Assembly (NCBI GenBank): GCA_049303575.1
Contig: JBAQNH010000002.1
Span: 316,541 to 380,540, forward strand
Direction of reading: 5' to 3'
Origin: Microgenomates group bacterium
GTDB lineage: Bacteria; Patescibacteriota; Microgenomatia; UBA1400; MFAQ01
Length of the DNA stretch: 64,000 bases
Program-made: the position numbers and the translations under genes
In this document: piece after piece, positions 8,616 through 47,003 of the stretch
Position numbering within the stretch: the stretch's first letter is position 1
How the letters are laid out: the number at the start of each line of letters is the position of its first letter
Notes under the pieces: model-generated
The model's database searches: none
What the model was told of the DNA's origin: nothing
The model's input: only the letters and a program-made list of their open reading frames with translations

Positions 8616-8716
8616 TTCCCCAGGTTTTTCCCAAACTACCAATGTTGACAGCCTATCTCCTTTAAATGTGCGAATTTTGGTAGCATTTCATCATCATAAT
8701 GTGGGAAAATACATCA

Positions 8717-11288: not shown

Positions 11289-11510
11289 TCACTTCAGAAA
11301 GCCTCTTTGCTGTAATACGTTCTTCATGGCTAGCCATTCAGAAGGAACGGTTTCGTAAGTATCTTCTATCTGTTTCAACTTATAAATTACCACCGCAATT
11401 TGTTCGGGTGGTACACCGTCAAAAAATTCTGGAGTAAACAACTCCATAAATAAATCATCCAGGGTCTCTGGACTTTCATTTTCCGGTGCCTGTCCTTTTT
11501 GTTTTTCCAT
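11289..11510 (-). CDS. Hypothetical small acidic protein (73 aa)
   Basis: ORF only. Confidence 0.3.
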   Translation of the reverse strand: MEKQKGQAPENESPETLDDLFMELFTPEFFDGVPPEQIAVVIYKLKQIEDTYETVPSEWLAMKNVLQQRGFLK

Positions 11511-11562
11511 ATACCGATTCTAGCACGTTGCCTGTAAGTGATACCGTTATAATAACTTAAAC

Positions 11563-12246: not shown

Positions 12247-12323
12247 AACATCGTGCATTTCCTTAGATATATTTAGGGTACTTTTGTATTCTGTCTTATG
12301 AATATCAACTATAGGTTGATTGC

Positions 12324-14306
12324 TTGAATAGCTGTGCTATAATTTTGGTTAAATTTATGGAACCTATATGTTCTTTAGATATGACTGAGTTTATAAAAAG
12401 ACCTGGAATTGAGCCTGTGTCTGTGGACTCAAGCACGAAGGAGCGCATGATTGAAAGCACCAAAACCGCCTTCGAAATTGCAAAAATGGTTACCGGAAAA
12501 CATGCTCCTGTTTACCTTTATGGTGGCGCGGTTCGAAATATGCTCCTTGGACAGCCAACCTCCGATACCGACTTTGACTTCATTGGTAATTTTAATCTTG
12601 ACCAAATAGAAAAAGATTTTCCAGGATTGGTAGTAGGACGCTGGGACGCCGTATCCACCTTAAGACTCGAAATTGGATCTTCAATATATGACTTCACTGG
12701 AGTTGAGGATATTTACCAAAGACTTTCAGAAAATGATATAAATACCTCTCTTATTTTTATGGATGAGAGTGGTAATATTTTTGATTGTTTTGGTGGAATA
12801 GAGTCGCTTAACAAAAAAGAAATTAGGATCGTTGATCCTGACAAAAAAATTATCAGTGACCCATCAAGAATACTGAGAGTATTTAGATTTGCCACCGAAC
12901 TTGATTTTAGTATTGAAGAAGAAACCCTGGCAAGCACAATAAGAAACGCCCATTTGTTAAAACAAGCTAAAAACCTTGACGACGATTTGTGGGAAATTGT
13001 GACCCTTGAACCCAATAAAAGGGCCGACGTTTTGAAATCATTGAGGCAGTACGGAATTGATCGATTCCTAGAATTTCCTGAAGGTGTTCTGGAAGCAGTA
13101 AATGTTTATGAACTAGAGAAGGAGATACAAAGATTTCCACAAATAGAAGAGGTTTCGAAAATGTTTAATACCGATGCCTATCTTGTTGGTGGTGCTGTTC
13201 GTGATCTTATCTGGGGTAAAAAAATTAACGATTTAGATTTTAAAATTAAATTGCCCGTTTCGGAAATCATTAGGATTCTTGAAGAACGTGGTTTTGAGAA
13301 AAGTCCTGACTACCATACCTCAGAGGGTCAGTATTATGTAAGTACTTTTACGGGAGTTGCTGGGGCGGTTATAAATGGTATCGATATTCATTTAACTGCG
13401 GTAGAGTCAATGGAATTATCTCCCATGATTGACACAGGTGATGTGAACTTTAGTTGTTGTATTTACAACGCAAATACACGAAAAATTGTGAACCCAGAAA
13501 TCATAAAGGACATTCAAGAAAAAAGACTTTATTTCTGTAACATAGAAAATGCTAACGAAGATCCTCTAATCGTAGTCAACGCACTTAAACAAATTTCCAA
13601 ATTACCTGATGTTGTAATACCGCAAGAAACCGATAAGGTAATTAAAAGTAATATTCCGAGAGTAATACAATATTTTGAGGAAAATCCTGAAATGATTTAT
13701 ATCTTAGAATCAATTTGCGGAAACTTAAATTCTGAGGAGGCTCTCTCATATTTTGGAATTCATACGGAAGTTTGTAAACTGTTAGCCAACTTGCCTGAGA
13801 AAAAATCAAAGTTGTTGGTCTCAGGAGAAAATTATTTATCTCTAACACTTGATGAACTTTCACCAAGTGATAAATCAGAATTAATTGAATTGATCAAGTC
13901 TGCGTTTGGTAAAAAATATGATTCAAGTAAGGAATTTCCAGAAAGGATTAACTCTGTCGTTTTCGAAAGGAAAGCTGGAGAAATTGTCGCTTGTGGCTTG
14001 GTGGATGGGGAACGAGTTTATGTTGCTTCAGCCAAACGGGGATATGGATGGATAAACATTTTTACCAATTTGGCTAAAAATAATTACAACGTTTGGTGCA
14101 CTGTTGACTCAGCGAATCCAAAAATACAAGCGTTATGTTCTCTAGGTGGCCTGACGATAGAAACCGATCCAACTGTAATGAGAAAAATGCTTGTTAATAA
14201 AGGTGGTAAAGATAACAATTCGCTTGAAATTTACGAACAAAACGGACTACTTGTATTTAGAGATAAAAATAAAAGCGGTTATTCGCAAGTGCTCCTCAGA
14301 TCTTAA
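12324..14306 (+). CDS. Tandem double pol-beta/CCA-type nucleotidyltransferase protein with C-terminal GNAT-like region
   Basis: There are two separate NTase head domains: PVYLYGGAVRNMLLGQPTSDTDFDF with a following RILRVFRF, and a second one DAYLVGGAVRDLIWGKKINDLDFKI. No HD domain is present. Confidence 0.55.
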   Translation: MNSCAIILVKFMEPICSLDMTEFIKRPGIEPVSVDSSTKERMIESTKTAFEIAKMVTGKHAPVYLYGGAVRNMLLGQPTSDTDFDFIGNFNLDQIEKDFPGLVVGRWDAVSTLRLEIGSSIYDFTGVEDIYQRLSENDINTSLIFMDESGNIFDCFGGIESLNKKEIRIVDPDKKIISDPSRILRVFRFATELDFSIEEETLASTIRNAHLLKQAKNLDDDLWEIVTLEPNKRADVLKSLRQYGIDRFLEFPEGVLEAVNVYELEKEIQRFPQIEEVSKMFNTDAYLVGGAVRDLIWGKKINDLDFKIKLPVSEIIRILEERGFEKSPDYHTSEGQYYVSTFTGVAGAVINGIDIHLTAVESMELSPMIDTGDVNFSCCIYNANTRKIVNPEIIKDIQEKRLYFCNIENANEDPLIVVNALKQISKLPDVVIPQETDKVIKSNIPRVIQYFEENPEMIYILESICGNLNSEEALSYFGIHTEVCKLLANLPEKKSKLLVSGENYLSLTLDELSPSDKSELIELIKSAFGKKYDSSKEFPERINSVVFERKAGEIVACGLVDGERVYVASAKRGYGWINIFTNLAKNNYNVWCTVDSANPKIQALCSLGGLTIETDPTVMRKMLVNKGGKDNNSLEIYEQNGLLVFRDKNKSGYSQVLLRS

Positions 14307-34462: not shown

Positions 34463-34879
34463 TTAAGTATTATTTTGAACTTTCTCAATCTTAAATTTGT
34501 GCCCATTTAATTCATACTCGAAGCCTACTTCTTTTCCTATAATAATTTTTGAAAGTGGGGTGTCTTCGCTTATCAGGGTAATTCCATCAATCGTTATTCC
34601 TCCTAAGCCATCTGGGACAATAAAAAATCTATATCTTGTGCCATTACTGAGATTAAGAAGGTCATAGATGGTCTGAAACTCTCCAATTCTTCTCTTTAAT
34701 TGCTGAATACTCCTTTTCTCCTCCAGCAAGCTGTTATAGAGCTGGTTGGCAACTTGCCTTGTCTGGTCATGTTGAGACTCCATTGGAGTGGCACTATTAT
34801 CACGTTCAAAGGCAACATGTTTAATGCTGTTTTCTACAGATTCAATTTTCTCGTTTAGGATGCTGGACAAGTCAATCAC
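34463..34879 (-). CDS. GreA/GreB-family transcript cleavage factor paralog (divergent N-terminus)
   Basis: It has a C-terminal FKBP-like Gre domain (RFFIVPDGLGGITIDGITLISEDTPLSKIIIGKEVGFEYEL) preceded by a coiled coil. Confidence 0.55.
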   Translation of the reverse strand: MIDLSSILNEKIESVENSIKHVAFERDNSATPMESQHDQTRQVANQLYNSLLEEKRSIQQLKRRIGEFQTIYDLLNLSNGTRYRFFIVPDGLGGITIDGITLISEDTPLSKIIIGKEVGFEYELNGHKFKIEKVQNNT

Positions 34880-34896
34880 AAAGTTAAATTATACAG

Positions 34897-35182
34897 TGGC
34901 TCACCACTCAGTAGAATTGCCTCGCGGTTTGCCAACTGCTTGCCGGCAGTATTACGGTCGCGCGAGACGAATTTTGTATCCCGCCTGCGGGCGGGATGAT
35001 TTGCCTTCGGCAAAGTGCCAACTTCGCATTCAGCGATTGTGGCGAAGCTCTCTCAATATATGGCTCGTTTCACAATCTCGCCATATAAATATCAACTAGT
35101 TAGGAGAGTATTTTACTATCTAACATTTAATGGTTGAGATATCATTGTCCTGACGGCAAAAATGCCTGCTTCTCAGGCACAA
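34897..35182 (+). repeat. Structured repeat copy A (modules Y+Z, long form, + orientation)
   Basis: It is about 90% identical to 38475-38791. It contains atcccgcc-UGCG-ggcgggat and uugcc-UUCG-ggcaa tetraloop hairpins and a terminal ugccug-cuucu-caggca hairpin. Confidence 0.75.
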
Positions 35183-35223
35183 TGAACACAGGTTTAAATT
35201 AAGAACTATTAATGTTAATATAA

Positions 35224-35862
35224 ATGCATATGGAAGAATCCACTGAGGGTATTGAACTAAATGATAAAAAATCTACTACGTCTGTCGAGAAGACAAGGAC
35301 AAGATGGGAAGAACTTAGTATTGGTGCCAAAAAAAGTCTAGACAAGTTGTTTAAGCTTGGAGAGTATAAAGAAATATCATTAGCTGAGGCTATTGGACGT
35401 ATTGATAAAGCTCCTTCAATTATTGAAGACAAAGGAGTGAGTGTTTTTGGTCATGAAGTCGAAGACCCCCTAGCCTTTACGGTGAAATATTTGCAAGAAT
35501 CAATGAAAATACTGACAAAAAAAGAAGGTGATAGTGTAAATTGCGGTAGATTGTACGAAGTGCTTGGAGATATTTTTGCAAAAGATACATCCCATGACGA
35601 AAAAGTAGATAGGCGCGAGTGGGATGAATTTATAATCGCACAATATGACGAAGCGATGCGAATATACAATGGGGCAGGAGATACAAGAAGATATTGGGAT
35701 GTTGACCTAAAGAATAATGTAATTAAGGGTGGCGTAGAAGATGTTGTTCTATCGAATGGGGAACACTATGGCTACAGGAAAGACTTACTTAATATGTTTG
35801 CTGAGGAGAGAAGAAAAAGAAGAGAAGAAGATCATAATATGCATCGAAATAAGAGCGTATAA
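35224..35862 (+). CDS. Hypothetical protein (212 aa), first gene of two-gene island operon
   Basis: ORF only. Its stop lies 8 bp before the next start. Confidence 0.35.
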   Translation: MHMEESTEGIELNDKKSTTSVEKTRTRWEELSIGAKKSLDKLFKLGEYKEISLAEAIGRIDKAPSIIEDKGVSVFGHEVEDPLAFTVKYLQESMKILTKKEGDSVNCGRLYEVLGDIFAKDTSHDEKVDRREWDEFIIAQYDEAMRIYNGAGDTRRYWDVDLKNNVIKGGVEDVVLSNGEHYGYRKDLLNMFAEERRKRREEDHNMHRNKSV

Positions 35863-35869
35863 ATGAGGT

Positions 35870-37600
35870 ATGGATGATGCAGTGGGAGGTTTTGAGATAG
35901 AAACAACAGATAATAATACTCCAAAAGCGGAAGCGGTGGAGAAACAAACTTCGAAAATTGAGGTGAAAGACGGTCGTGGAGAAAAAGCCGATGTAATACA
36001 AACGGCAGAATTCAAAACAAAACTTGAAAATGATAAAGTTGAAGAAAAGCTGACACAGTTTGAAAATTTAGTAGGAAAATACACAAAACAAAAGGTTTCG
36101 GAAGGATTTAAAATCAATGTCGTTTATGGTTCTGCCGGAAATGGAGAGGTGGTAGATGGAGTTCTTTCAGTGAATTTACCAACTCAAAACGAAATAGACA
36201 TTGTTCAAAATGATGAGAGAGCAAAACCATTTTTGGATGTACTGACAAAAGCGGGTACAACGTATAAGGAATTTTCATTGGCACTAGCTTCTTCAACGAC
36301 GATACACGAATCAGAACATATGATTATTGACAGTAGACCAAATTCACAACTAGCAAGGGATTTTGAAAGTGCTCAACCTCTTGATCAAAAAATTATTCTC
36401 GATGAAGCAGGCCACGCGTTGTCGCTTCTTGATGAAGGAATTACATACGCATTTCAAATGGAAATAGATAGTGGAAGCGAATTATTCCAGAAACTGGAGG
36501 GGGATAAACCACCGTCAGAGGAAAGTTTTACAATATCAACCAGAAAACGACTGGGTGAGATTCTCAGGCCAAAATTGAAAGAGTATATCGATAATGGAAA
36601 CGATATAGATGGAGATTTTTTAAAGTTTGCGGGTGAGGAGATGAAGAAACTGGGTATCGAAAAATATGTAGCGGAAGCGGAAAACGAGAGAAGAGAGAAA
36701 ATGGTTTGGAGGGAGGCAGAACCAGTGCTAAATGATTGGGAAGGCAGATTGGCGTCATATGAAGAAAAACACCGCACACAGATATCTAAATCATTAGGCA
36801 TTATGGCTCATCTATTTGGAAAAAATACTCCGGAAAAAATCAACGTCGACCTTCATTACTTGGCAAGAAGAGACAGCTCGAAAGGTGAACCTGTTTCTAA
36901 CTTAGTTGACAACAATCTATTAGCAAAAAATGATACAGACGTTATTTACTGGCTTGGTAAGGTCACTCGATTATCTAGTGATGGTCCAGAACAAATTGAG
37001 GAAGAAGAAAGAAGACAAACAGCAAAAATAATACATGAAATGATTCATCAGGATTTTCAAAGTGAAAACAGTGTATTTAAAGACGTGTTGAATGAGTCAA
37101 ACAATAATCCGGAGATTATTGAATTAAGGAAAGAACTTATGTCGGGTCAAGCCAACTATCTTGAACCAGAAGCTGAACTTACAGCCATCTATCTGGAACA
37201 ATACGCAGATAAAATTTTAAAGGAAGAAACTTCTAATGATGGAACATCCACAAGTCAACAAATAATTGACTATCGGTTAGATAATGATAGGTTTCAAGAA
37301 ATTTTCAATGCGGTTATAGAAGCAGATGACGCAGAAAAGTGGAAAGATGGCGGTCCGTATAGAAGCACACATGATGGTTGGAAAGGTTTATATACAGAAA
37401 AAAATGAAAACATCGTTTCTACGGCTCCAGAAGCTAGTAATCAACCTCGACCTCCTCACGAGCTTTCAATCTACGAGCTAGGAACAAAAATAACCGATTT
37501 TTCTCTAATCGAAAAGTATGTTATAGAAGGAAAACAGATGGATTTACTCTTTGTAAAGGAACTGTACAAACTGTTTTTAGCTCAAAAAAATACTAGGTGA
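35870..37600 (+). CDS. Hypothetical acidic protein with two HExxH motifs (possible duplicated metallopeptidase-like fold)
   Basis: 576 aa with TIHESEHMIID (around residue 146) and IIHEMIHQDF (around residue 390). No signal peptide is present. Confidence 0.4.
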   Translation: MDDAVGGFEIETTDNNTPKAEAVEKQTSKIEVKDGRGEKADVIQTAEFKTKLENDKVEEKLTQFENLVGKYTKQKVSEGFKINVVYGSAGNGEVVDGVLSVNLPTQNEIDIVQNDERAKPFLDVLTKAGTTYKEFSLALASSTTIHESEHMIIDSRPNSQLARDFESAQPLDQKIILDEAGHALSLLDEGITYAFQMEIDSGSELFQKLEGDKPPSEESFTISTRKRLGEILRPKLKEYIDNGNDIDGDFLKFAGEEMKKLGIEKYVAEAENERREKMVWREAEPVLNDWEGRLASYEEKHRTQISKSLGIMAHLFGKNTPEKINVDLHYLARRDSSKGEPVSNLVDNNLLAKNDTDVIYWLGKVTRLSSDGPEQIEEEERRQTAKIIHEMIHQDFQSENSVFKDVLNESNNNPEIIELRKELMSGQANYLEPEAELTAIYLEQYADKILKEETSNDGTSTSQQIIDYRLDNDRFQEIFNAVIEADDAEKWKDGGPYRSTHDGWKGLYTEKNENIVSTAPEASNQPRPPHELSIYELGTKITDFSLIEKYVIEGKQMDLLFVKELYKLFLAQKNTR

Positions 37601-37658
37601 AGATACGTCTGACGAGTTCCCTAAATCCACTTAAGATAATAATATAAGATACATTAAG

Positions 37659-37837
37659 TTTTGCGTTTTCTTTTCATTTTCGTACGACTGCGGTAGTGCA
37701 TTCGAGCCGATGTGGAGTTTATCCGCCTTTGGCGGAGCAGGCAGTTGGCGAACCGCTAGGCCATTAGACCGAGCGGTGAGCCATTAAGTTAGTAATTCTG
37801 TTGGAAATAGGTCCGAACTTCGTTATAACACCTCACA
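37659..37837 (-). repeat. Structured repeat copy C (modules W+Y'+X', inverted orientation, ends at precise X terminus ...ttataacacctcaca)
   Basis: The reverse complement of 37738-37837 matches 38421-38520, the start of copy B. The 5' part (ttttgcgttttcttttc...tgcggtagtgc...ttcgagccgatg) matches 44930-44985. Confidence 0.7.
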
Positions 37838-37982
37838 TATTTTGTGACCCCCCAGGGTTGCTGGAATGGAACCACATTTGGGAAGAACTCAAATCGATCT
37901 ACCGCACGACTAGTCACCCTCAAACTCCAGCCCAATCTTACTACCAATAGGTTATGGAACTATCGATAAAACACAACACTTA

Positions 37983-38402
37983 TTAAACCTGATTAGTTCT
38001 GGTTAAGAAATCCAATAATCCTGCACTAACAAACTCTCTACACTCCTCACTATCAGTATTCTCATGAGTTTCTAACCACTTATCAAGCAATAGCCCCATT
38101 TCAGTAAACTGTCCGTCTACATCAATAACTTTAACTCTTGGATTTTCTGGAATATCAACCTCAACCCAAGTTTTTTTGTCAGTCTTGAAATCATAACTCC
38201 AATGTCCCCAGTTTCCTTGTTCGTTCATCCTGCCAAGTCCAATCTCTAATCCATTTGGGTAAACCAAAGAATATGCTTCATCAACAAACATAGATGGATC
38301 ATGTCCGGCAAGATTCAAATCGTATGTATTGTTGAATACGACTTTGATAACTTCAAACTCTCTCTTCTCCTTTACTGGTTCATTTTCACTCATAATAAAC
38401 AC
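37983..38402 (-). CDS. Hypothetical protein (139 aa) bracketed by inverted X termini
   Basis: Clean ORF with no motif. It lies within the 583-bp segment between X' (ending 37837) and X (starting 38421). Confidence 0.35.
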   Translation of the reverse strand: MFIMSENEPVKEKREFEVIKVVFNNTYDLNLAGHDPSMFVDEAYSLVYPNGLEIGLGRMNEQGNWGHWSYDFKTDKKTWVEVDIPENPRVKVIDVDGQFTEMGLLLDKWLETHENTDSEECREFVSAGLLDFLTRTNQV

Positions 38403-38420
38403 ATTGTATCACTAGTAATT

Positions 38421-38791
38421 GTGAGGTGTTATAACGAAGTTCGGACCTATTTCCGACAGAATTACTAACTTAATGGCTCACCGCTCGGCCTAACGGCCTC
38501 GCGGTTCGCCAACTGCCTGTCGGCAGTATTACGGTCGCGCGATACGAATTCTGTATCCCGCCTGCGGGCGGGATGATTTGCCTTCGGCAAAGTGCCAACT
38601 TCGTTGTCACATCTTTATGTTCGTCACAAGATCGCCTTGAGCGATTGTGACGAAGCTCTCTCAATTATGGCTCGTTTACCAATCTCGCCATATAAATATC
38701 AGCTAGTTAGGAGAGAATTTTACTATCTGATATTTTAGGATTGAGATAGCATTTGGCCTGTCGGCCAAAGTGCCTGCTTCGCAGGCACAAT
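38421..38791 (+). repeat. Structured repeat copy B (modules X+Y+Z, full long form, + orientation)
   Basis: It starts with tgtgaggtgttataacgaag. It contains the same UGCG and UUCG tetraloop hairpins as copy A, plus an extra ggcc-uaac-ggcc hairpin and a 24-nt insertion. Confidence 0.75.
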
Positions 38792-38907
38792 AAGACGTTA
38801 TTTGGGTACTCGTGATAATAAAAACACACTTTTTAATCTCTATTAACTGGTTAGATTCTTGGGCATTATATCCTTAACAATCCCGTTAGGGTAAAATAAG
38901 ACCAAAT

Positions 38908-39420
38908 ATGAAGAATAATTTGTTGATAAGTCTCCTTATGTGTTTGATGATATCCATCATACTTTTTGCTTATGCCCCAAAAATCTTGGCGGAAGAAACT
39001 TGTGTTGTTGAGCCAATTTCTTCATTTGATGACAGCTCGTCATGTAGATATACCTCGTATAGAGGGTCTGATGATAATTTTTATGAGTCTTGTTATCAAA
39101 AATATCTACTAAGAAAAAATGATTGGGAGATAAGGTGTTTTAGATATTGGGACGACAAAAACAAGATTACCCCAAGTACGAATCAAACACCAACGGTTGC
39201 ACCTGTAATTCAGAACACTCCTCCAGCAACCACTCCAAGTCCATCACCCATTAAAAAAATAATCAAGAAAATTATTACTCCTACCCCAACAGAAGAAATC
39301 GCAAGTAGTTCAGGATCAACATTTAATACCGCCACAGTTTCAGGAATAACAACATCAAAAAACGGGTTCTTGAGCTGGATATTGAAAATATTTAGAATAC
39401 TTAATATATTGAAGGATTAA
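38908..39420 (+). CDS. Hypothetical secreted protein with Cys-containing N-domain and Pro/Thr-rich linker
   Basis: A signal or TM segment is followed by a Cys-rich segment, then TPSTNQTPTVAPVIQNTPPATTPSPSP, then a hydrophobic C-terminus. Confidence 0.35.
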   Translation: MKNNLLISLLMCLMISIILFAYAPKILAEETCVVEPISSFDDSSSCRYTSYRGSDDNFYESCYQKYLLRKNDWEIRCFRYWDDKNKITPSTNQTPTVAPVIQNTPPATTPSPSPIKKIIKKIITPTPTEEIASSSGSTFNTATVSGITTSKNGFLSWILKIFRILNILKD

Positions 39421-39457
39421 AAATTGTATTCTCTCTAATTCATAATAATCTCCAACA

Positions 39458-40129
39458 CTACCTTATTTTTTCTTGCACTTGTTTACTCTTATCCTCAACC
39501 AAATATTTACCTAAATTACATTCTTGACACCGAGTTGCTAAATTGTCTACTGAATTACCCCCACCATCTTCTGGTCTGACAATGTGATCCATTGATAATA
39601 GTTTACCGTCTTTTGATCCTAAACCACAATCTACACACTTAAAGTTATCTCTTTTGAGCACCATATACCTAGTTGCTGGTCCAATCGATTTTCTAAATTC
39701 TCCCGCTTTAATTGCTTTTTTTAAATGGCTTAGGTCAATTCTTCCTCTTGATAGAGCTAATCTATGGGCTACTTGAACTGTTCTTAGTATACCTAACAGA
39801 CCAACGTACCTCTGGATACTTCGTACCGTGACTATTAGATCAAGCTTATCTTTAATCTCACTACAAGAATATCCATCTTGGTATAAATTTCTAATTTCGT
39901 TTTCATAAATTGATAATTTACTACTCCTAATTCTATTCTCTCTTGTCTTTACTGATGCTTTAGTACTTAACCCTTCATTCCTTTTCAGCTTCATTACCAG
40001 GGTTTTTTCTTTTAACCAATTCATAATTTTATGACTATATCTTAATGGATATTGTTTCCTTATTTCATACATGGGAATGCCCTCGCTGTATAGCTTCAAT
40101 ATCTCAAATTTATTTTCAGACCATTTCAT
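39458..40129 (-). CDS. HNH endonuclease with N-terminal HTH-like region
   Basis: The HNH motif is CVDCG...DHIVRPEDGGGNSVDNLATRCQECNLGK. Confidence 0.6.
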   Translation of the reverse strand: MKWSENKFEILKLYSEGIPMYEIRKQYPLRYSHKIMNWLKEKTLVMKLKRNEGLSTKASVKTRENRIRSSKLSIYENEIRNLYQDGYSCSEIKDKLDLIVTVRSIQRYVGLLGILRTVQVAHRLALSRGRIDLSHLKKAIKAGEFRKSIGPATRYMVLKRDNFKCVDCGLGSKDGKLLSMDHIVRPEDGGGNSVDNLATRCQECNLGKYLVEDKSKQVQEKIR

Positions 40130-40136
40130 TCGAATT

Positions 40137-40424
40137 CTATACTAATTGATTACTTAAAAGATAAGAGTATACAGAAGTACAAAAAGCAGCAAAATAACCA
40201 AAAGCTTGAACAACGTTTATTGTTCGATTCAATTTATTACTGTCATCTATATAAATTCCAAAATCTTCAACAAATTCACTCATCCCCATTTTTACTCCGT
40301 TAATAGTTTTTATTTCCCCCTTATTTTTTAGTTTAGGGATTTTTCTAGTAGCTTGATAAAAATGAAATATTGTCAACATCAAGAAGATAAAACTGAAGAC
40401 AATCCAAAGAAGCTGATTATTCAT
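40137..40424 (-). CDS. Hypothetical small membrane protein (95 aa, 2 TM)
   Basis: Hydrophobic segments lie at both ends. Confidence 0.3.
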   Translation of the reverse strand: MNNQLLWIVFSFIFLMLTIFHFYQATRKIPKLKNKGEIKTINGVKMGMSEFVEDFGIYIDDSNKLNRTINVVQAFGYFAAFCTSVYSYLLSNQLV

Positions 40425-40526
40425 ATCTTATGATACAACCTAGTGATAATAATCCCAGAACATTGCTTTGCTTTTGTATAAAATCAAAAAATCAAAATGT
40501 TTTATCAATAGACTATAATTTGATTA

Positions 40527-41390
40527 ATGGAAACTGAAAAATCACCCAAGAGAAGTTTGAGAAAGATATTTCGAAATGTGTGGTTATATTCTTTAATTCT
40601 CTTCATCGTTGGGTTAATAGGATTTAGATTTTTGGGATGGGAAGCTGGTTTTAGTAGAACAGCAACCATCGTAATTATGGGTGCATCAGCTTTGGTTGGT
40701 GGAATATCTTTTTTGACATGGATTTCAATCCTAATCTTCTCAAATAAATTTTCTCGAATCATCATAATACTATTGGGGATTTTTATATCATCTTTATACG
40801 CTTTAACCATATATTCAGTCACTTATATTTTTGTCTACAGCCGTGTATCTCAAGGAAGTATGGATACACTGGTTGATCTTCAATATATTCTTCCATTACT
40901 CATTTTTGGTCTCACCTTAGGTGTTTGGTTGAAAACAAAGCCGTTATTGATAAAAGGAATCGTTATCGCTGGGTTATTGGTCACATACTTAGCGGGAAGA
41001 AATTATGCAGTCGAGGCATATAAACCTCTTACCCAAGCCTTTAATTTTATTGACCGGGCTAATTCTACTGAAGGGTTGGCTTGGACAAATGAACCCGATG
41101 ATAATAAGTATTTGGAAGGAGAAAGAAAATACGTAGCTTTATACAAGCAAGCTTCCGAATCAATTAAAAATGATGTTTTTCGCTCTTGGCCAAGACAATA
41201 TTTTAACGATCTCTACCGAGTAGAAAAGAAAGTTTTAGATTATGATGAACAGCTCTTTACAGGGAAATTGAAAATCTCTCAAGAAGAAATAGATAAAATC
41301 ACAGCAGAAGTCATGAAAGAAAGAAGTGATATTCTTGCTTCGGGGTTTTCAACTCCATATTGGACTGAGTTCTTCATGGTTGTTAAATAG
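40527..41390 (+). CDS. Hypothetical polytopic membrane protein (287 aa)
   Basis: It has 5 or more predicted TM helices in the N-terminal two-thirds, followed by a soluble C-terminus. Confidence 0.35.
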   Translation: METEKSPKRSLRKIFRNVWLYSLILFIVGLIGFRFLGWEAGFSRTATIVIMGASALVGGISFLTWISILIFSNKFSRIIIILLGIFISSLYALTIYSVTYIFVYSRVSQGSMDTLVDLQYILPLLIFGLTLGVWLKTKPLLIKGIVIAGLLVTYLAGRNYAVEAYKPLTQAFNFIDRANSTEGLAWTNEPDDNKYLEGERKYVALYKQASESIKNDVFRSWPRQYFNDLYRVEKKVLDYDEQLFTGKLKISQEEIDKITAEVMKERSDILASGFSTPYWTEFFMVVK

Positions 41391-41453
41391 TTATTCCCCA
41401 CGAGTGGGGTTATACAAATTACATTTTTTTCTTTAAATCATAATAATACTTAT

Positions 41454-42026
41454 ATGACTAAGTCAATGAAATATTTATTAGTCTCACTAATAGTAATTAC
41501 CGCATTCTGTGTTTTATTCAACAGACAATCAAAAAAAGTTCTTATCTCCAATACAACTTCTAATCTTGCAAAAACGTCTGTAGATGAAAAGACGGCTTGT
41601 TCTGATGTTATTGCCAAGTATGCAACAGAAAGTGGAATACCAAAATATTCAGGAGATATAAAACAGATCAATTTCAATTCTTTGCCAGAAGCAAAATTAT
41701 TTAAGACTACAATCACCAATTCGTACAAAGAAGGCGCAAACTTTGCCGGGCACTATAATTTATCATTGTGGGGATGCGGAACTGATTGTTTTGGAATGTC
41801 AATTACTGATGTAGAAACGGGGAACATAATAGAATATTCACCTATACATGAAGGCTATCATCTAGATGGCTATAACGTCGATAATCGCTTAATAGTATTC
41901 AATCCCATTAATGCGGGAATGGAAAGAAAAATATACAAATTATCCGAATCGAGCAATAAGACTAACGCTCTTGAACTAATATGTTCGGAAATATCTCAGA
42001 ACGACATGTATCAATATCCTGAATAA
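41454..42026 (+). CDS. Hypothetical secreted/signal-anchored protein (190 aa)
   Basis: The N-terminus has a signal-like hydrophobic segment. The rest is unassigned. Confidence 0.35.
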   Translation: MTKSMKYLLVSLIVITAFCVLFNRQSKKVLISNTTSNLAKTSVDEKTACSDVIAKYATESGIPKYSGDIKQINFNSLPEAKLFKTTITNSYKEGANFAGHYNLSLWGCGTDCFGMSITDVETGNIIEYSPIHEGYHLDGYNVDNRLIVFNPINAGMERKIYKLSESSNKTNALELICSEISQNDMYQYPE

Positions 42027-42041
42027 TAATTAGCATATTTA

Positions 42042-42509
42042 TTGGTAATGAATAATCGAACTATAAAAAACATGAAACTAACTGAAGTTAAAAGCTGGAT
42101 TTTTAATAAATGCAAAAAAAATAGTGCGGCTATTAAAAAGATAACTTTGGGTCAATGGATAATAATTGCCTTATTGCTTTTAATATTATGGCAATTAATC
42201 GACGCTCCTATTTTTAGAATGCATTTCATTAAAAGAAGCTATATATTTGAAAAAAATAAAGGTGAATGTATCCTCAATTATGGATCACAGACATGCAGTG
42301 TGTCGTTTTATACTCGACCAAGTATATTTATCGTAATTACAAAACATGAAGGGGACGTCATTTTTGCAAAAAGCATTAATTTTTTAGGGAAATCTGTATT
42401 TAAAGACGGGACAGCCTATTGTCTCACTATACCGAAACCCAATTTCGTCACAGGATGTCGTTACAACGGAATAATATATAAGTTTGTTGACGTCAACGAA
42501 GAGAAATAA
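42042..42509 (+). CDS. Hypothetical membrane-anchored protein (155 aa)
   Basis: It has a single TM (WIIIALLLLILWQLI). Confidence 0.3.
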   Translation: MVMNNRTIKNMKLTEVKSWIFNKCKKNSAAIKKITLGQWIIIALLLLILWQLIDAPIFRMHFIKRSYIFEKNKGECILNYGSQTCSVSFYTRPSIFIVITKHEGDVIFAKSINFLGKSVFKDGTAYCLTIPKPNFVTGCRYNGIIYKFVDVNEEK

Positions 42510-42572
42510 ACTGAAAAACAAAAGAGTGAAAAAAGACGCAATCATATGCTTACAAATTTATAATCATGAAAT

Positions 42573-44915
42573 GTGAAACTGAAGAAAATCAAAAAAATCA
42601 AAGTTTACAAATCATTCCAAGATTTTTCTTGGCAACCTTTTTTAAATAATGAAACATTTCATGATGAAGTAAATATTATTTATGGCGAAAACGGAAGTGG
42701 CAAAAGCTCAATAGCCAATCTGTTAAAAAATGTTTCGGAAAATAAAGATTTTGGTAAATACAAACCAATCGAAGCGTGTTTAGTCTTTGATGACGGTGAA
42801 AAAAAATATCCAGTAAACAACGACTGGGATAATAAAATCCCAAAAGGTTCTATTTTGTTTTTTGATCATGAATTTGTTGACAAAAATGTTCATATGGGGA
42901 GTAGGCGAGATACAACACAAAACGGACAAGAACAGGAATCAGGCAAAATGATTATTGAGTTTGATAGCAACGCTATAAATTTGCGCGGTGTACGAGACGT
43001 TGCGAAAAAAGCGAAAGAGGAACAAGACCAGAAGATTAAAGATTTCAATTCAGCAAATAAGGATTACTTGTTCAATATTTTGACTGATGATGAAAAACTA
43101 TATTATCAAAACTATAAGGATAATACCGAAGATGAAATCAAAAAAGTAAAACAAGACTTGGAAAAAGAGAAAAGGGAAGCAGGAAAAAATTTTGAAATTG
43201 ATCAAGGCCTACAGAAGAAAGTCACGAGCATTCAGAGCGGAATAAAAAGTTTGCCGACAGAAGAAGTTGAAATCTCTCTTTCAGATATTGAAACCTATCA
43301 GAAAATTTTTGATTTTGATCTAAAGGAGCGGGCATCAATAAAGGCCGAACAAGATTTGATTGATAAAGTCAAAACGCACAAAATATTTTTTGAAACTGGT
43401 TTTGAAATCAGAAAAACACATCAAAACCGATGCCCTTTTTGTCAATCCGAAAACGAAGAAGCGGGGATTAAGAAAATTGTTGATTTGTTCAAGCAAATTT
43501 ATGACACGACATATAAAACACAGGCACAACAATTTGAAAAAGATAAACAAACCCTACTTGGTGAAATTTCACAAATTACGAAATCAGTCTCCGATTTTGA
43601 TTTGAATAATATTTTTCTAGAACTTAAAAAATTGGATCAAAACTATAAGATACCATATATCTACTCTGTTGAAGACGAAGAAATATACAAAAAGCCAGCT
43701 GTGAAAGAGATAAAAGATTTGAGCGATAAAATATCAAAACTTACAAAGCCAGACAAAGAGAACATCAAAGATCTTTATACAAAAGTAAAAACTGAATTTA
43801 AGGTAATTGAAGCGTTTTTCAAGGCAATTGGTGATTTCGTAGAACAAAGGAACAATCTAATTGTTAAATTCAAATCTGACAATACTGACGAAAAGCTTCA
43901 AGCACGAATTGCCACAAGCAGTAAAAGAATTGCTGAAGTTGAAAAAGTGTTGGTTTTTATCAATGGGAACAAGATAAAAGAGCAACAAAAGAAAGTGCAG
44001 AAAGAAAAGGAACTGAAAGTGATGCAAGATGTTTTAGCTACGTTAAAAATAGAATACGAAACGGCATTGAAAAATTATGAGGAACATTGCTCAACAAAAG
44101 CCTTTTCAAATCTATTGTCCAAAATTCAAGATTATTTCAAGAATTTCAATTTCAGTTTTAAGCTTAAATTGAAAACAGACCCAACAGGTAACAAAACCGA
44201 ATTTCCTTTTGCTTTCAAAGTTTTGGATTTTGAGGGCAACGAACGGGATTTTAATGAGGGGCTTTCTGAAGGGGAGATTCAGGTTTTGTCCCTTTGCTTT
44301 TTCTTTGCTTTTCTTGATATACAAAAAGAAAAAGATCAAAAAATACTTATTTTTGATGACCCAATCACGAGCTTGGATAGTAGCAATTTGAGCTATCTTG
44401 TTGATTTAATTTCAGAAGAACAAAATAACTTTTCACAAATATTTGTTTTTACCCACCACAGAACCTTTTTCAAATTTTTAAGAAAACGATTCGGACAACA
44501 AAAAATTGGGTGCAAGGAATTTAATGTCATTAGGAACAGAAAGGAGTTAGGCGGAAGCTTTTTATGTAAAAGTCATCAAACAGACTTTATGCCGTTGCTT
44601 AGAAATTTTGAAAGTGATTTGAGAAGTTGGTCTCCTTTAGATATAGAATTAAAAATAGTTGAGTACGGCCAGTATTTAAGATATGAGGTTGAAAAGTTCA
44701 TTAAGAACGAGCTGCTTCATATAAATGAAACAAAATTTGAAGATATTGTAGACGGAGTAAAAAACAACCAAAACATTAATGTTATAGATTTAGAAAAAAT
44801 TAAAGAAATATACTTATTTTGCAATTGGACAACTTCGCATGTCGATGTTGGTGATGATCATGGTCTTGATCAACTGAAAACTAAAATAATCGACTTTGTA
44901 TCCATAATTAATTAA
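42573..44915 (+). CDS. RloC/AAA_13-like Rad50-type ABC ATPase with coiled-coil CxxC zinc hook and C-terminal extra domain (candidate anticodon-nuclease/defense protein)
   Basis: It has a PrrC/RloC-like Walker A (IIYGENGSGKSSIANLL) and a long coiled coil containing HQNRCPFCQSE (CxxC hook). The ABC signature LSEGEIQ, Walker B ILIFDDP, D-loop SLD and H-loop FTHH follow. About 180 aa remain C-terminal of these motifs. Confidence 0.5.
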   Translation: MKLKKIKKIKVYKSFQDFSWQPFLNNETFHDEVNIIYGENGSGKSSIANLLKNVSENKDFGKYKPIEACLVFDDGEKKYPVNNDWDNKIPKGSILFFDHEFVDKNVHMGSRRDTTQNGQEQESGKMIIEFDSNAINLRGVRDVAKKAKEEQDQKIKDFNSANKDYLFNILTDDEKLYYQNYKDNTEDEIKKVKQDLEKEKREAGKNFEIDQGLQKKVTSIQSGIKSLPTEEVEISLSDIETYQKIFDFDLKERASIKAEQDLIDKVKTHKIFFETGFEIRKTHQNRCPFCQSENEEAGIKKIVDLFKQIYDTTYKTQAQQFEKDKQTLLGEISQITKSVSDFDLNNIFLELKKLDQNYKIPYIYSVEDEEIYKKPAVKEIKDLSDKISKLTKPDKENIKDLYTKVKTEFKVIEAFFKAIGDFVEQRNNLIVKFKSDNTDEKLQARIATSSKRIAEVEKVLVFINGNKIKEQQKKVQKEKELKVMQDVLATLKIEYETALKNYEEHCSTKAFSNLLSKIQDYFKNFNFSFKLKLKTDPTGNKTEFPFAFKVLDFEGNERDFNEGLSEGEIQVLSLCFFFAFLDIQKEKDQKILIFDDPITSLDSSNLSYLVDLISEEQNNFSQIFVFTHHRTFFKFLRKRFGQQKIGCKEFNVIRNRKELGGSFLCKSHQTDFMPLLRNFESDLRSWSPLDIELKIVEYGQYLRYEVEKFIKNELLHINETKFEDIVDGVKNNQNINVIDLEKIKEIYLFCNWTTSHVDVGDDHGLDQLKTKIIDFVSIIN

Positions 44916-44929
44916 CCCATAATAATTAA

Positions 44930-45210
44930 TTTTGCGTTTTCTTTTCTTTTTGCACTACTGCGGTAGTGCCGTTCGAGCCGATGTTTCGGCAGTTGTTGGC
45001 GAACCGCGAGGCCGACAGGCCGAGCGGTGAGCCAATTAAGTTAGCAATTCTGTTGGAAATAGGTCCGAACTTCGTTATAACACCTCACACTCAGAGAGTT
45101 TTCGCTCTCGTCAGGGTACATCGCCCGTGCGCCCGCCCTCGCACGGAGCGATGTGAAGGGCTTTTAAGTTGTATTACTATCAAAAAGAAAAAAGAAAAGA
45201 AAACGCAAAA
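44930..45210 (-). repeat. Structured repeat copy D (W+Y'+X' inverted) fused to an 80-bp inverted copy of the tRNA-Glu 3' trailer, bounded by 17-bp inverted repeats
   Basis: Bases 44930-45089 match copy C and are the reverse complement of the copy B start. Bases 45086-45165 are the reverse complement of 46691-46770. ttttgcgttttcttttc at 44930-44946 is the reverse complement of 45194-45210. Confidence 0.7.
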
Positions 45211-45276
45211 CGGGGGACAATTCCAGTTTGTCTTGGCTGTACTCTTTCGGGAAATATATGGTTAAATGAATGTAAG

Positions 45277-46908
45277 GTGAAATACATTTTGTATTGTCGA
45301 AAGAGTACCGATGAAAAAGACAAACAGGTCTTGTCCATTGAAGCTCAGATTGCTGAGCTTACCGAGTTCGCCATAAGGGAAAGGCTTGAGATAGTCGCCA
45401 CTTTCTCCGAATCAAAAACAGCCAAGACTCCAGGCAGACCAATCTTCAAGGAGGTGCTAAAGAAAATCGAAAGTGACGAGGCCGACGCCATTCTTTCCTG
45501 GCACCCCGATAGGTTGGCCAGAAACAGCATTGATGGCGGTTACCTCATCTATCTTCTCGACACAGGGAAGCTCCTTGACCTCAAGTTTCCTTCCTTTTGG
45601 TTTGATAACACTCCGCAAGGAAAGTTCATGCTCAACCTCGCTTTCGGTCAATCCAAATACTATGTCGATAATCTCTCGGAGAATGTTAAGCGTGGTCTTC
45701 GCCAAAAGATTAGGAATGGCGTCTGGCCTTCCCAAGCCCCTTATGGCTACTTGAATAATAAAATTACTCGGGGTATTGAAATCGATCCGGAAAAAAGCAA
45801 AGTCGTGAAAAAAGCCTTCGAAATCTTTGCAAAAGAAAAAGTTTCCTTCTCCGATGTTTCACTTCTTCTTGCCAAAGGCGGTATTCATAAAAGAAGTGGC
45901 AAACCAGTTGGTATCAGTCAAGTCCATAAAATGCTCACCAATCAGTTTTACATCGGCATCATGTCATATAACGGGGAATTTTTCGAAGGCAAACACGACC
46001 AATTCATCACTCGCCAACTCTTTAATAAGGTAAAGAGAAGACTAGAAGAAAAAGGCAACTCCAATTTCAAGTTTCGTGATTATGCTTTTTCCGGTCTCAT
46101 GCGTTGTGGGGAGTGTGGCGCGACTATTACGGCCGAAACTCACACCAAGCATTACAAAAACGGCACTCACCAAAAATTCGTGTATTACCGCTGTACCAAA
46201 AAGCTTAGACCTTGTTCACAACCATATTTACCAGAAGAAAAACTCAAAGATCAACTCCGAGGATTCATCTCCCTCGCCACACTCCCCAAACGCTGGGGGA
46301 ACGACTGGCTCAAGTGGTTGGAAAAAGACAAAGTCACGGGGCGGCAATCTGCAGATTCATTTTTTGAAAGATACAAACTAGATATACAAACCATTGATGG
46401 CAAACTCAACCTCTTACTTGATAGCTATCTTGATGGCACAATCAACTCTCAAACATACAAAGGCAAAAAGAACCAGCTCTTTACCGAGAAACAAAATCTA
46501 GAAGACAAGATAGCCAAAACAAAAGCAAAGGGAAGCAGTTGGCTCGAACCCATGACAGAATTCGTCTTTTGCGCTATACGAGCGCAAAAAATCGCGCGAC
46601 CGAATACTGCTAGCGAAGATCTGCGGATCTTCGCCAAAAACATCGGCTCGAACTTCTTTTTGAAAGATAAACAACTTACATGGGAGATGAAAAAGCCCTT
46701 CGCATCGCTCCGTGCGAGGGCGGGCGCACGGGCGATGTACCCTGACGAGAGCGAAAACTCTCTGAGTGTGATCCCGGCGGGAGTCGAACCCGCGATCTTT
46801 TGGATGAGAACCAAATGTCCTAGACCACTAGACGACGGGACCATGTCTGAACCTGTATATTGTACCAAATTAGTGCGCCAATTTGACTTGATAGGTTCAA
46901 AAGTGTAA
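45277..46908 (+). CDS. Large serine recombinase (resolvase-domain + recombinase-domain + zinc ribbon + coiled coil); 3' end reads antisense through tRNA-Glu
   Basis: The catalytic N-terminus is KYILYCRKSTDEKDKQVLSIEAQ (the YxRVSTxxQ-type motif with the Ser nucleophile). A recombinase domain and a zinc ribbon (CGECGATITAETH...YYRCTK) follow. The start is uncertain, either GTG at 45277 or TTG at 45289 after an AGGTGA. The ORF has no stop until 46908. Confidence 0.7.
   Translation: MKYILYCRKSTDEKDKQVLSIEAQIAELTEFAIRERLEIVATFSESKTAKTPGRPIFKEVLKKIESDEADAILSWHPDRLARNSIDGGYLIYLLDTGKLLDLKFPSFWFDNTPQGKFMLNLAFGQSKYYVDNLSENVKRGLRQKIRNGVWPSQAPYGYLNNKITRGIEIDPEKSKVVKKAFEIFAKEKVSFSDVSLLLAKGGIHKRSGKPVGISQVHKMLTNQFYIGIMSYNGEFFEGKHDQFITRQLFNKVKRRLEEKGNSNFKFRDYAFSGLMRCGECGATITAETHTKHYKNGTHQKFVYYRCTKKLRPCSQPYLPEEKLKDQLRGFISLATLPKRWGNDWLKWLEKDKVTGRQSADSFFERYKLDIQTIDGKLNLLLDSYLDGTINSQTYKGKKNQLFTEKQNLEDKIAKTKAKGSSWLEPMTEFVFCAIRAQKIARPNTASEDLRIFAKNIGSNFFLKDKQLTWEMKKPFASLRARAGARAMYPDESENSLSVIPAGVEPAIFWMRTKCPRPLDDGTMSEPVYCTKLVRQFDLIGSKV
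46691..46768 (-). repeat. Native 3' trailer of tRNA-Glu (copy E), inverted partner of 45086-45165
   Basis: It contains the hairpins gagag-uuuucg-cucuc and ccgugcg-cccgcccu-cgcacgg. It is 68 nt identical to the upstream inverted copy. Confidence 0.7.
46769..46842 (-). tRNA. tRNA-Glu (anticodon CUC)
   Basis: Manual cloverleaf: acceptor GGUCCCG/CGGGAUC with one G-U pair. D-arm is GUCU-AGUGGUCUA-GGAC. Anticodon stem is UUUGG/CCAAA with loop UUCUCAU. T-arm is GCGGG-UUCGACU-CCCGC. Length is 74 nt, no CCA is encoded, and it resembles E. coli tRNA-Glu. Confidence 0.8.
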
Positions 46909-47003
46909 AATGCAACCCGTTAGGCCAGAATAGTACGTTTGTCGGTATTTCCATCAAAAGTTCCGCAACTATTGTTTTTTTGGTCAAACCCTGTTTTACT
47001 AGC

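Follow-up and report, generated by a model that had tools for sequence, protein, structure and literature searches.

The segment from 34,897 to 46,771 of the 64-kb stretch of Microgenomates DNA analyzed here (all 64,000 nucleotides of which are referred to as the window) very probably consists of two related integrative elements lying side by side, members of a serine-recombinase family that inserts at the 3′ ends of tRNA genes. An earlier note on this DNA had described an accessory island carrying five related repeat copies, and all five are present at or near the positions reported (A, 34897–35183; B, 37658–37837; C, 38420–38791; D, 44930–45165; E, 46691–46771). These repeats are the conserved ends of the two elements, A and C being left ends and B, D and E recombinase-proximal ends; they do not separate individual cargo genes, as had been proposed. 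A and C are direct copies of approximately 90% identity, and B and D are also direct copies of one another. B and C form a 100-nucleotide (nt) inverted repeat (96%), and D and E an 81-nt inverted repeat (99%) that brackets the recombinase gene. Repeats A–E occur nowhere else within the window, and their confinement to the island in a scan of these 64 kb led to rejection of a genome-wide miniature inverted-repeat transposable element.

Element 2 (38,420–46,771) is complete, with an attR junction at 38420 (TGTGA|x) and an attL junction at 46771. Starting at tRNA-Glu(CTC), it runs through the 81-nt arm Q, the large serine recombinase (LSR), and a second, inverted Q to the tRNA-mimic half-site X; hairpins and the cargo come next, and the structured left end and an inverted X then lead into displaced host DNA. 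Its parts, listed from the tRNA end, are:

46768–46842, minus strand: tRNA-Glu(CTC), attachment site of element 2 (ARAGORN and Rfam, 64 bits)
46691–46771, minus strand: Q′, right inverted-repeat arm, which is the tRNA-Glu trailer (attL junction 46768–46771)
45277–46908, plus strand: large serine recombinase gene (open reading frame (ORF) 45169/45277–46908; Resolvase, Recombinase and Zn_ribbon_recom domains)
45189–45210, plus strand: W′, a 22-nt reverse complement (100%) of W, just upstream of the recombinase start
45085–45165, plus strand: Q, left inverted-repeat arm, with the internal attP-like site X|Q (99% complementary to 46691–46771)
44930–45084, plus strand: outer part of repeat D (order of parts conserved across 50 loci)
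45035–45084, plus strand: X half-site with T-loop mimic in repeat D (motif offset relative to the tRNA T-loop)
44995–45034, plus strand: 40-nt GA-bulged hairpin in repeat D
44971–44979, plus strand: V, GTTCGAGCC, in repeat D
44952–44969, plus strand: P1 hairpin in repeat D (stem sequences vary, hairpin retained)
44930–44951, plus strand: W in repeat D
38474–38791, plus strand: remainder of repeat C, a reversed 40-nt GA-bulged hairpin and an approximately 280-nt A-module, forming the structured left end of element 2
38532–38543, minus strand: motif ATCGCGCGACCG in repeat C
38420–38474, minus strand: attR of element 2, an inverted X (96% complementary to 45035–45089)

Q′ carries a terminator-like hairpin and a T-run on the tRNA strand, and a weaker extension of the left-arm Q reaches 45189. 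At attR, TGTGA occupies 38420–38424 with unique DNA outward; outside this junction attR has just TCACA in common with attL and with the internal site, and the same pattern is seen in more than 20 relatives. The remainder of repeat C is 93% identical to positions 2384–2754 of L002 (L numbers designate loci in other genomes), and equivalent ends are found in L005, L006, L008, and L009.

Judged by its sequence, the enzyme is a large serine recombinase displaying all features by which this class is defined at the sequence level. Pfam searches returned PF00239 (E = 5e-22), PF07508 (E = 4e-15), and PF13408 (E = 5e-11), and the SPbeta and TP901-1 integrases were matched in a search of the PDB. The likely start is the GTG at 45277, directly before a conserved YCRKS block, and the catalytic-region block YCRKS.DEKDKQ is invariant in 14 family members. 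The conserved part of the protein ends near 46690, past which the reading frame continues through Q′ and then antisense through the tRNA; both the end of the island at tRNA-Glu with an LSR and the antisense reading had been noticed earlier, and both are seen. Many family members likewise lack a stop before the right arm, so that the ORF runs through the arm and the tRNA antisense, with variable tails (503–597 residues in total). More than 7000 homologues were detected at E < 1e-10, mostly in Patescibacteria; a subgroup of approximately 865–930 residues, near double the usual length, shows 43–51% identity. No description of the recombinase family or of its architecture was found in the open-access literature, and within that literature the suggestion that the arrangement is not a described system stands.

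The architecture of the family was assessed in 80 loci obtained by scanning one genome per species (recombinase identities of 49–83%), nearly all of them from Microgenomates metagenome-assembled genomes (MAGs). Many third-party annotation MAGs titled uncultured Pseudomonadales, Gammaproteobacteria, or Saccharibacteria hold Microgenomates-like loci, and their assigned taxonomy seems unreliable. The first three close relatives (80–91% identity) have the same inverted repeat of 80–81 nt, with arms 1524–1526 nt apart; their arms are 99–100% identical within each locus, while the outer 25 nt differ between loci, in both arms together. The LSR gene lies between inverted repeats in approximately 69 of 74 evaluable loci (arms of 43–166 nt, spacing 1420–1810 nt), and the arms are 94–100% complementary in all but five. 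In 57 of the 62 loci with enough flanking sequence the right arm adjoins a convergent tRNA gene at its 3′ end, and the "tRNA trailer" module is therefore general. This arm begins 0–57 nt from the tRNA 3′ end, mostly overlapping the last 3–8 nt, and eleven tRNA specificities are represented (Glu, Lys, Leu, Val, Arg, Tyr, Pro, Trp, Gln, Ile, and Ser). The orientation of the recombinase is identical in all 57 tRNA-adjacent loci, its 3′ end pointing towards the tRNA. When behavior of the insertion sequence (IS) type was looked for, copies were found at tRNA 3′ ends only, with no direct duplication beyond a 4–7-nt core. Some MAGs carry two diverged copies.

Several contigs start inside a left arm (L015, L038, L040, L053, L061, and L063) or end approximately 50 nt past a right arm (L006, L020, L022, and L025). 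Such breaks at the arms or inside the adjacent tRNA suggest strain heterogeneity or repeat collapse at the junctions. A prophage origin was considered and rejected, as 2.9 million viral contigs contain no close relative and gave three weak matches to the family profile. A 73% inverted match near 4.4 kb was also considered as a second recombinase (ORF 4307–5389), and nothing supports this assignment.

The conserved block just outside the left arm, X, is found in every locus and reads roughly TTTGAAATACGTTCGAATTTGTTCAAAAACGT. On the opposite side of the recombinase module lies the T-arm of the tRNA, GGTTCGAATCC.... Alignment of 46 loci on the arm boundary places GTTCGAAT at −22 to −15 in X and at −18 to −11 in the tRNA T-loop, a shift of 4 nt. 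In serine integrases, the zinc ribbon recognizes one and the same motif in attP and in attB, its position in attB being shifted by 5 bp towards the center (Rutherford et al., PMC3783163), and by analogy the 4-nt shift fits X as a putative P-type half-site and the tRNA as a putative B-type half-site. A second, inverted X is positioned 0.7–9 kb upstream of the recombinase in most loci (more than 20). Its outer flank consists of the tRNA-specific 4–7 nt seen in attL (TCAC, GCAC, CTGC, ACCGCCA, or similar) followed by unique sequence.

The tRNA|Q, X|Q, and X|trailer junctions share just the last 4–7 nt of the tRNA (acceptor nucleotides 71–72, the discriminator, and the next base or CCA), and because nothing more is shared they behave like attL, an intact copy of attP, and attR, respectively. 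The integrase gene is bracketed by 43–166-nt inverted repeats because the integrated element keeps this second, intact attP-like copy, and the repeat is inverted because the internal X|Q copy is itself inverted relative to attL. If the shared nucleotides are taken at face value, crossover must fall in the stretch from the penultimate acceptor base to the base after the discriminator.

Versions of the chromosomal locus in relatives were recovered by a metagenome scan with GreA. L087 (GreA 89% identical, SerRS 83%; 841-kb contig) contains tRNA-Glu with its own trailer and a GIY-YIG gene, and no element; to the right of the tRNA, collinearity with the window extends over 12 kb, and the DNA to the left is unrelated. 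Its gene order, tRNA-Glu–greA–HD–serS without the island, bears out the description of the segment as accessory. As to whether the two gre genes flanking the island are adjacent in a relative lacking it, greA lies beside tRNA-Glu in L087, and no counterpart of the left-flank GreA-like gene was found within 10 kb of that tRNA. Where relatives have no element, the tRNA ends ...GGGATCAC, and the trailers that come after it are unrelated.

Closer relatives differ in what they retain. In L085 (GreA 99%), the tRNA is joined directly to an inverted X (TCACA-CTT-TGTGA), followed by the hairpin, V, P1, W, and other cargo, with no recombinase. L086 (GreA 97%) has only Q and the last 22 codons of the recombinase. 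The L085 cargo, at tRNA-Glu(ctc), is 82–98% identical to that of L004, where cargo and a complete recombinase module are found at tRNA-Glu(ttc), beside tRNA-Lys and ruvC. The LSR of L095 is 83% identical to that of the window, and the host GreA just 56% identical; co-divergence of the recombinase with its host, or domestication, at which the first three relatives had hinted, was rejected on these figures. LSRs that are 91–94.5% identical occur at Leu/Arg/Tyr, Glu/Val/Lys, and Val/Ile tRNAs with X identical. Taken together, these loci document horizontal movement, variation among strains, and a relaxed choice of tRNA, and they argue against extended base-pairing with the target.

Family members were also encountered beyond Patescibacteria. 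The cultured Bacteroidota isolate Schleiferia thermophila DSM 21410 (L074) has one at tRNA-Ser(gct), 99.4% identical to a copy in a MAG labeled Patescibacteria (set L072, L073, L074, and L076), and a Thermodesulfovibrio MAG and a Patescibacteria MAG have a 95.7% identical copy in common. These cross-phylum copies represent either transfer or mis-binned contigs.

Element 1 (34,897–37,847) displays the same two end types as element 2, with the recombinase and the left X half-site gone. The element and the DNA that separates it from element 2 comprise:

34897–35183, plus strand: repeat A, truncated left end of element 1 (direct copy of 38474–38791, approximately 90%; X missing)
34897–34936: reversed 40-nt GA-bulged hairpin in repeat A, followed by the A-module
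34955–34966, minus strand: subterminal motif CTCGCGCGACCG in repeat A
37658–37837, plus strand: repeat B, recombinase-proximal end, with W, a V-like motif, an extra hairpin, the 40-nt hairpin, and a 55-nt X ending TCACA
37833–37847, no strand assigned: scar TCACA-TATTT-TGTGA where Q-LSR-Q′ is missing (as read from the sequence)
37843–37975, minus strand: degenerate tRNA-Glu-like remnant ending ...GGGGGGTCAC, old attachment site of element 1 (non-coding, approximately 130 nt)
37983–38402, minus strand: 139-residue ORF between the elements, on the former tRNA-Glu trailer side, outside the attR junction of element 2

Repeat B is a direct copy of 44925–45089 and an inverted copy of 38420–38519 (96%). 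The stretch at 37843–37975 is approximately 80% identical to positions 85–215 of L089, which lie downstream of a tRNA-Glu gene there, and for this reason it and the adjoining 139-residue ORF are read as old host DNA. It gave no ARAGORN or Rfam match and may be a decayed tRNA or an unrecognized tRNA-like gene; the ORF has no family match in Pfam or PADLOC. Element 1 thus appears to have integrated at this neighboring tRNA-Glu-like remnant and to have lost its recombinase module later, probably by hairpin-mediated deletion of the long palindrome.

The scar resembles the junction of L085, whose cargo is the same as that of the LSR-bearing L004. The two LSR-less junctions have the same 5-bp stem with differing fillers; they look like products of hairpin-mediated deletion and could be a footprint. 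A further LSR-less locus, L047, contains a solo palindrome (11380–11660) in which two different Q variants are fused at the Q hairpin loop and flanked by inverted X, followed by 973 nt of cargo between 109-nt inverted repeats (11554–12744). The position of this fusion, at the hairpin loop, suggests that Q hairpins promote deletion of the recombinase.

Conserved motifs extend well beyond the junctions. W (about AAAATTTTTGCGTTTTTCTT) is located 45–204 nt, usually 100–170 nt, upstream of the X|Q boundary, and W′ directly follows Q. Both members are found in 52 of 56 loci, where their match outscores 20 shuffles per locus, and they show compensatory variants. Between W and X, the P1 hairpin was found in 28 of 39 loci, with a stem sequence that differs among lineages. 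The V motif GTTCGAGCC is at least 90% conserved and recurs twice, on the other strand and in two reading frames, inside the 3′ end of the recombinase gene; in 42 of 57 loci, these inner copies are set back from the tRNA junction by approximately 119 and 223 nt. The motif copies within the recombinase gene of the window are:

46541–46549 and 46645–46653: GGCTCGAAC
46591–46602: ATCGCGCGACCG

A further exact copy of GGCTCGAAC, the fourth, is found far from the island at 1169–1177 (minus strand).

At these motifs, the codons CTC-GAA and GGC-TCG-AAC are used in 98–100% of 66 genes. The top codon at other conserved four- and six-fold sites averages 0.45–0.47, and by this comparison the synonymous sites are frozen at the motifs. 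The ATCGCGCGACCG/AAAATCGCGCG motif, frozen inside the recombinase gene, recurs inverted approximately 90–170 nt inside the attR end in approximately 19 of 22 loci, and repeats A and C of the window contain it too; an ATCGCGCG motif is present at both element ends. We infer that GTTCGAGCC and ATCGCGCGACCG are putative accessory binding sites common to both ends, which may serve in a higher-order complex.

The repeats are modular and strongly structured, as had been claimed (z = −6.8 to −8.5; 17 compensatory pairs in seven copies). The consensus fold of the A-module contains 103 pairs, 17 of them compensatory across seven copies, and both strands fold far better than shuffled sequences (z = −6.8 and −8.5). 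The leader of approximately 290 nt (W-P1-V-hairpin-X-Q-W′) has a z-score of −7.8, and in 45 of 50 loci its recombinase-sense strand gives the better fold, a bias to which relatedness and G+T richness could contribute. Only tRNAs were matched in Rfam, at gathering and at permissive thresholds.

The following mechanism would account for these observations. The recombinase would recognize the universal T-loop (GGTTCGAnTCC) of a tRNA gene as the B half-site and the T-loop mimic in X, 4 nt further out, as the P half-site, and strand exchange inside ...TCAC would regenerate the tRNA. Near-identical recombinases would be able to use many tRNA genes because only generic tRNA features and 4–6 terminal bases are read. 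Less certainly, the internal X|Q copy would most likely be a recombinase operator or leader and a spare attP, the arms may be kept identical by gene conversion, and GTTCGAGCC and ATCGCGCGACCG, at fixed distances at both ends, may be accessory sites for a higher-order complex.

Several points weigh against this model of two integrative elements. It was built from comparison of junctions and sequences, and the crossover was placed solely by where sequence identity stops. No clear dyad axis, by which Q might be typed as a P or B half-site, was found around the junctions. Inverted arms that match perfectly at the two junctions cannot result from a single 2-bp exchange. The elements yielded no recombination directionality factor, a simple sigma-70 scan did not pick up X, and promoter-like sites are no more frequent there than expected by chance. 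Finally, Q-LSR-Q′ stands alone between two convergent tRNA-Glu genes in L031, a locus that an autonomous cassette fits equally well.

Some of these points bear on particular steps. The duplicated Q needs an extra explanation because its first 14 nt contain no self-complementary dinucleotide, and the idea that one serine-recombinase exchange inserted a palindromic cassette was rejected since no such dinucleotide occurs near the arm ends. To account for arms that are identical within a locus yet diverge between loci, the attP region would have to be duplicated and the copies then subjected to gene conversion. The proposal that X is a sigma-70 promoter, for which the scan was negative, has been kept just as a weak idea.

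The alternative suggested by L031 is that Q-LSR-Q′ (approximately 1.7 kb, with 80–120-bp terminal inverted repeats) is an autonomous IS-like element that inserts into att cores formed by a tRNA and X, by X and X, or by two convergent tRNAs, the inverted-X cargo blocks being non-autonomous and mobilized in trans. We consider this improbable. L031, which has no X, hairpins, or W, fits such a module, but recombination of the internal attP with another tRNA gene could also have given rise to it; either origin is equally possible for this locus. An autonomous module would accommodate the sharing of cargo between L085, with its tRNA directly on an inverted X and no LSR module, and L004, the LSR-less junctions of window repeat B and L047, and the presence of terminal inverted repeats on both unit types. 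However, W outside and W′ inside the module co-vary, and the outer region and the module therefore evolve as a unit. A tRNA directly on an inverted X was seen once among 223 tRNAs, as expected for rare deletions, and the fillers differ (CTT and TATTT), while a 2-bp exchange can neither generate nor remove a perfect palindromic insert here. The long, near-perfect inverted repeats that bracket the serine recombinase in nearly every locus, the concerted evolution holding their arms identical, and the frequent breaks of assemblies at the arms are also what a self-inverting switch would produce, one that, like hin in the Salmonella H segment, toggles expression of the recombinase or of the tRNA trailer. 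Such a switch is very unlikely because no assembly has a flipped recombinase segment: all 57 of the 57 tRNA-adjacent loci have the same orientation, and the sole co-oriented case, L047, is without a right arm. The protein, moreover, is a large serine recombinase with a zinc ribbon and not a small invertase, and the attR sites beyond the cargo and the empty site of L087 point to integration and excision.

The earlier note favored an integron-like platform on which single cassettes, each with a repeat as its boundary, are captured and shuffled by a serine recombinase; this interpretation can now be given almost no credence. Several related repeats do lie in both orientations between accessory blocks beside a recombinase, and cargo is wholly different among relatives with the same ends, but the repeat map contradicts such an array, having only two kinds of repeat position (left and recombinase-proximal) and two elements, and no succession of single-gene cassettes individually flanked by recombination sites. 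The 6.4-kb cargo, with seven ORFs in both orientations, contains no internal repeat, relatives have one cargo block per element, and no attI/attC-like series, common promoter, or tyrosine integrase is present. It is likewise highly improbable that the leader of approximately 290 nt and the A-module are functional RNAs acting in recombination or target choice with an RNA-assisted serine recombinase. Their strong predicted structure (z = −7.8), the better fold of the sense strand in 45 of 50 loci, the P1 and hairpin stems that vary in sequence yet are retained, the 17 compensatory pairs in seven A-module copies, and the tRNA 3′-end mimic matching the last bases of the target would all suit an RNA. 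Palindromic DNA sites, though, yield the same covariation, the strand bias may stem from G+T richness and sequence relatedness, and no Rfam family was matched. X is identical at tRNAs with different T-stems and acceptors, which therefore leaves no extended guide–target complementarity, and large serine recombinases read DNA via their own domains (PMC3783163). A wider proposal, doubtful in our view, is that the family is not a minimal-site integrase but works through an extensive, ordered assembly on folded nucleic acid, forming an RNA- or cruciform-assisted intasome. Its parts would be the tRNA-mimicking leader of approximately 290 nt, the A-module, three GTTCGAGCC copies approximately 104 nt apart, and ATCGCGCGACCG frozen in the coding region; such an intasome would target tRNA genes by their generic features and set directionality with no need of a separate directionality factor. 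In a related reading, the palindromic Q-LSR-Q′ would be a new mobile "integrase cassette" hopping between att-site cores.

Taken as two integrative elements, the segment invites comparison with the serine integrases (A118/LI, phiC31, Bxb1, TP901-1, and SPbeta SprA). It resembles them in its resolvase catalytic, recombinase, and zinc-ribbon domains, in detectable similarity to the SPbeta and TP901-1 integrases, in attL, attR, and attP-like junctions with a very short common core, and in a motif 4 nt further out on the element half-site, comparable to the 5-bp shift between attP and attB (PMC3783163). In contrast to these enzymes, the target seems to be a generic tRNA feature, with one recombinase type at many tRNAs, and the integrated element retains an intact internal attP-like copy. 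The elements are also tiny (3–9 kb) and non-viral. Classical serine-integrase sites are 40–50 bp, whereas the motif arrays described here reach more than 200 nt from the junction, into the coding region.

As in the Hin and Gin segments, the serine recombinase gene is placed between inverted repeats of its own presumed site; the differences are the large enzyme, arms of approximately 100 nt compared with 26 bp, a single orientation in approximately 57 loci, and the integration junctions. KplE1 intS reportedly encodes a tyrosine integrase whose promoter overlaps attL. By analogy with its autoregulation, the full copy of the presumed binding site immediately before the integrase gene could be an operator, although here this site is an extra internal copy. 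None of the defining features of integrons was found: there is no IntI tyrosine recombinase with attI and Pc, the sole recombinase being of the serine type. The IS110 bridge RNA and IS607/TnpB systems differ in that the protein here is an LSR and that X is identical at tRNAs with different stems.

In lifestyle, the element is a tRNA-targeted integrative island, and the island in this window is ordinary in function. Islander-type islands and Prochlorococcus tycheposons also integrate at tRNA 3′ ends, regenerate the tRNA, and have the integrase beside it; tandem elements and decayed remnants build the island, cargo is variable and often defense-related, and presence or absence varies among close strains. 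These are mostly systems with a tyrosine integrase (910 of 937 tycheposons; bioRxiv 10.1101/2020.12.28.424599) that duplicate tens of nucleotides of tRNA, in contrast to a serine enzyme and a 4–7-nt core. The elements here also have no replication module, and their ends carry long structured repeats.

Generic tRNA targeting, the duplicated internal att site, and the motif arrays are family features that go beyond an ordinary tRNA island. Few mobile elements have been characterized in Patescibacteria (the candidate phyla radiation), and the family described here has more than 7000 homologues and a repeatable anatomy. It appears to be a main carrier of small defense-type gene blocks into Microgenomates tRNA loci. 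Its LSR seems to read the universal T-loop and 4–6 terminal bases and can therefore land at many tRNA genes; if this targeting rule holds, it would be a natural example of relaxed yet predictable site choice, of interest to serine-integrase engineering. The conserved DNA architecture is far larger than the sites of model integrases, with its duplicated internal att, identical arms, and motif arrays constraining synonymous sites. A cultured member in Schleiferia thermophila DSM 21410 makes bench tests feasible.

The cargo of the two elements and the gene at the left flank of the island are as follows:

34463–34879, minus strand: GreA/Rnk-like 138-residue host gene at the left flank, outside the island (weak GreA/GreB C-terminal match)
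35224–35862, plus strand: ORF of 212 residues, element 1 cargo
35870–37600, plus strand: ORF of 576 residues with two HExxH motifs (HESEH and HEMIH), element 1 cargo
38908–44915, no single strand: element 2 cargo, 6.4 kb, AT-rich, seven ORFs in both orientations (GC 0.31–0.34)
from 38908: secreted or membrane ORF
39458–40129, minus strand: HNH protein (Pfam; weak REase_II match in PADLOC)
from 40137 (minus strand), 40527, 41454, and 42042: membrane ORFs
42573–44915: AAA_13/PDC-S06/LmuB-like ATPase (Pfam and PADLOC)

The AT-rich stretch that had been noticed at 39.4–44.9 kb is clear in the composition (GC 0.31–0.34 over 39–45 kb versus 0.40–0.45 in the flanks), and the non-housekeeping cargo is present as described: the AAA_13 ATPase, the HNH protein, the protein with two HExxH motifs, and ORFs with hydrophobic N-termini. 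The ATPase matches the PADLOC candidate defense family PDC-S06 (E = 2e-32) and also LmuB of Lamassu, and the cargo of element 2 appears to be defense-like. The membrane ORF at 41454 has a 58% homologue in the L002 element. The two ORFs of element 1 gave no Pfam or PADLOC match, and the remaining cargo ORFs of the window have no family match. In relatives, the cargo consists of a helicase with DUF4411 and an M78 peptidase, or an Eco57I-like enzyme, or a kinase-like protein. In L002, L005, L006, L008, and L009, C-type and D-type ends surround unrelated cargo of 1.2–7.4 kb, one block per element. The cargo of another related element, L044, includes a 300-residue ORF containing three tandem 219-nt units of 60–71% identity (8584–9121).

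The island had been described as lying between GreA paralogs, and both flanking genes are present. A mechanistic meaning of this placement did not hold up, as the GreA-like gene is found elsewhere in relatives. The match of its 138-residue product to the GreA/GreB C-terminal domain (E = 0.002) is below the Pfam cut-off, and its family is small (23 protein clusters), with ordinary, differing chromosomal contexts in relatives; these contexts rule out the gene as cargo. It is a lineage-specific chromosomal gene whose position beside the island looks incidental.

Small GIY-YIG genes adjoin tRNA genes in several relatives (L087, 9560–9707; L093; L098; L047, 9427–9795; and L021, approximately 3190–3250). 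The hairpin trailer between tRNA-Glu and the GIY-YIG gene of L087, TATCTTTCGCTAAAGCT(T/A)CAGATAGCAAGC, is the displaced attR trailer of the L021 element, which is there at tRNA-Lys. Elsewhere in the window, two tandem copies of approximately 150 nt with 72% identity are found at 8245–8551.

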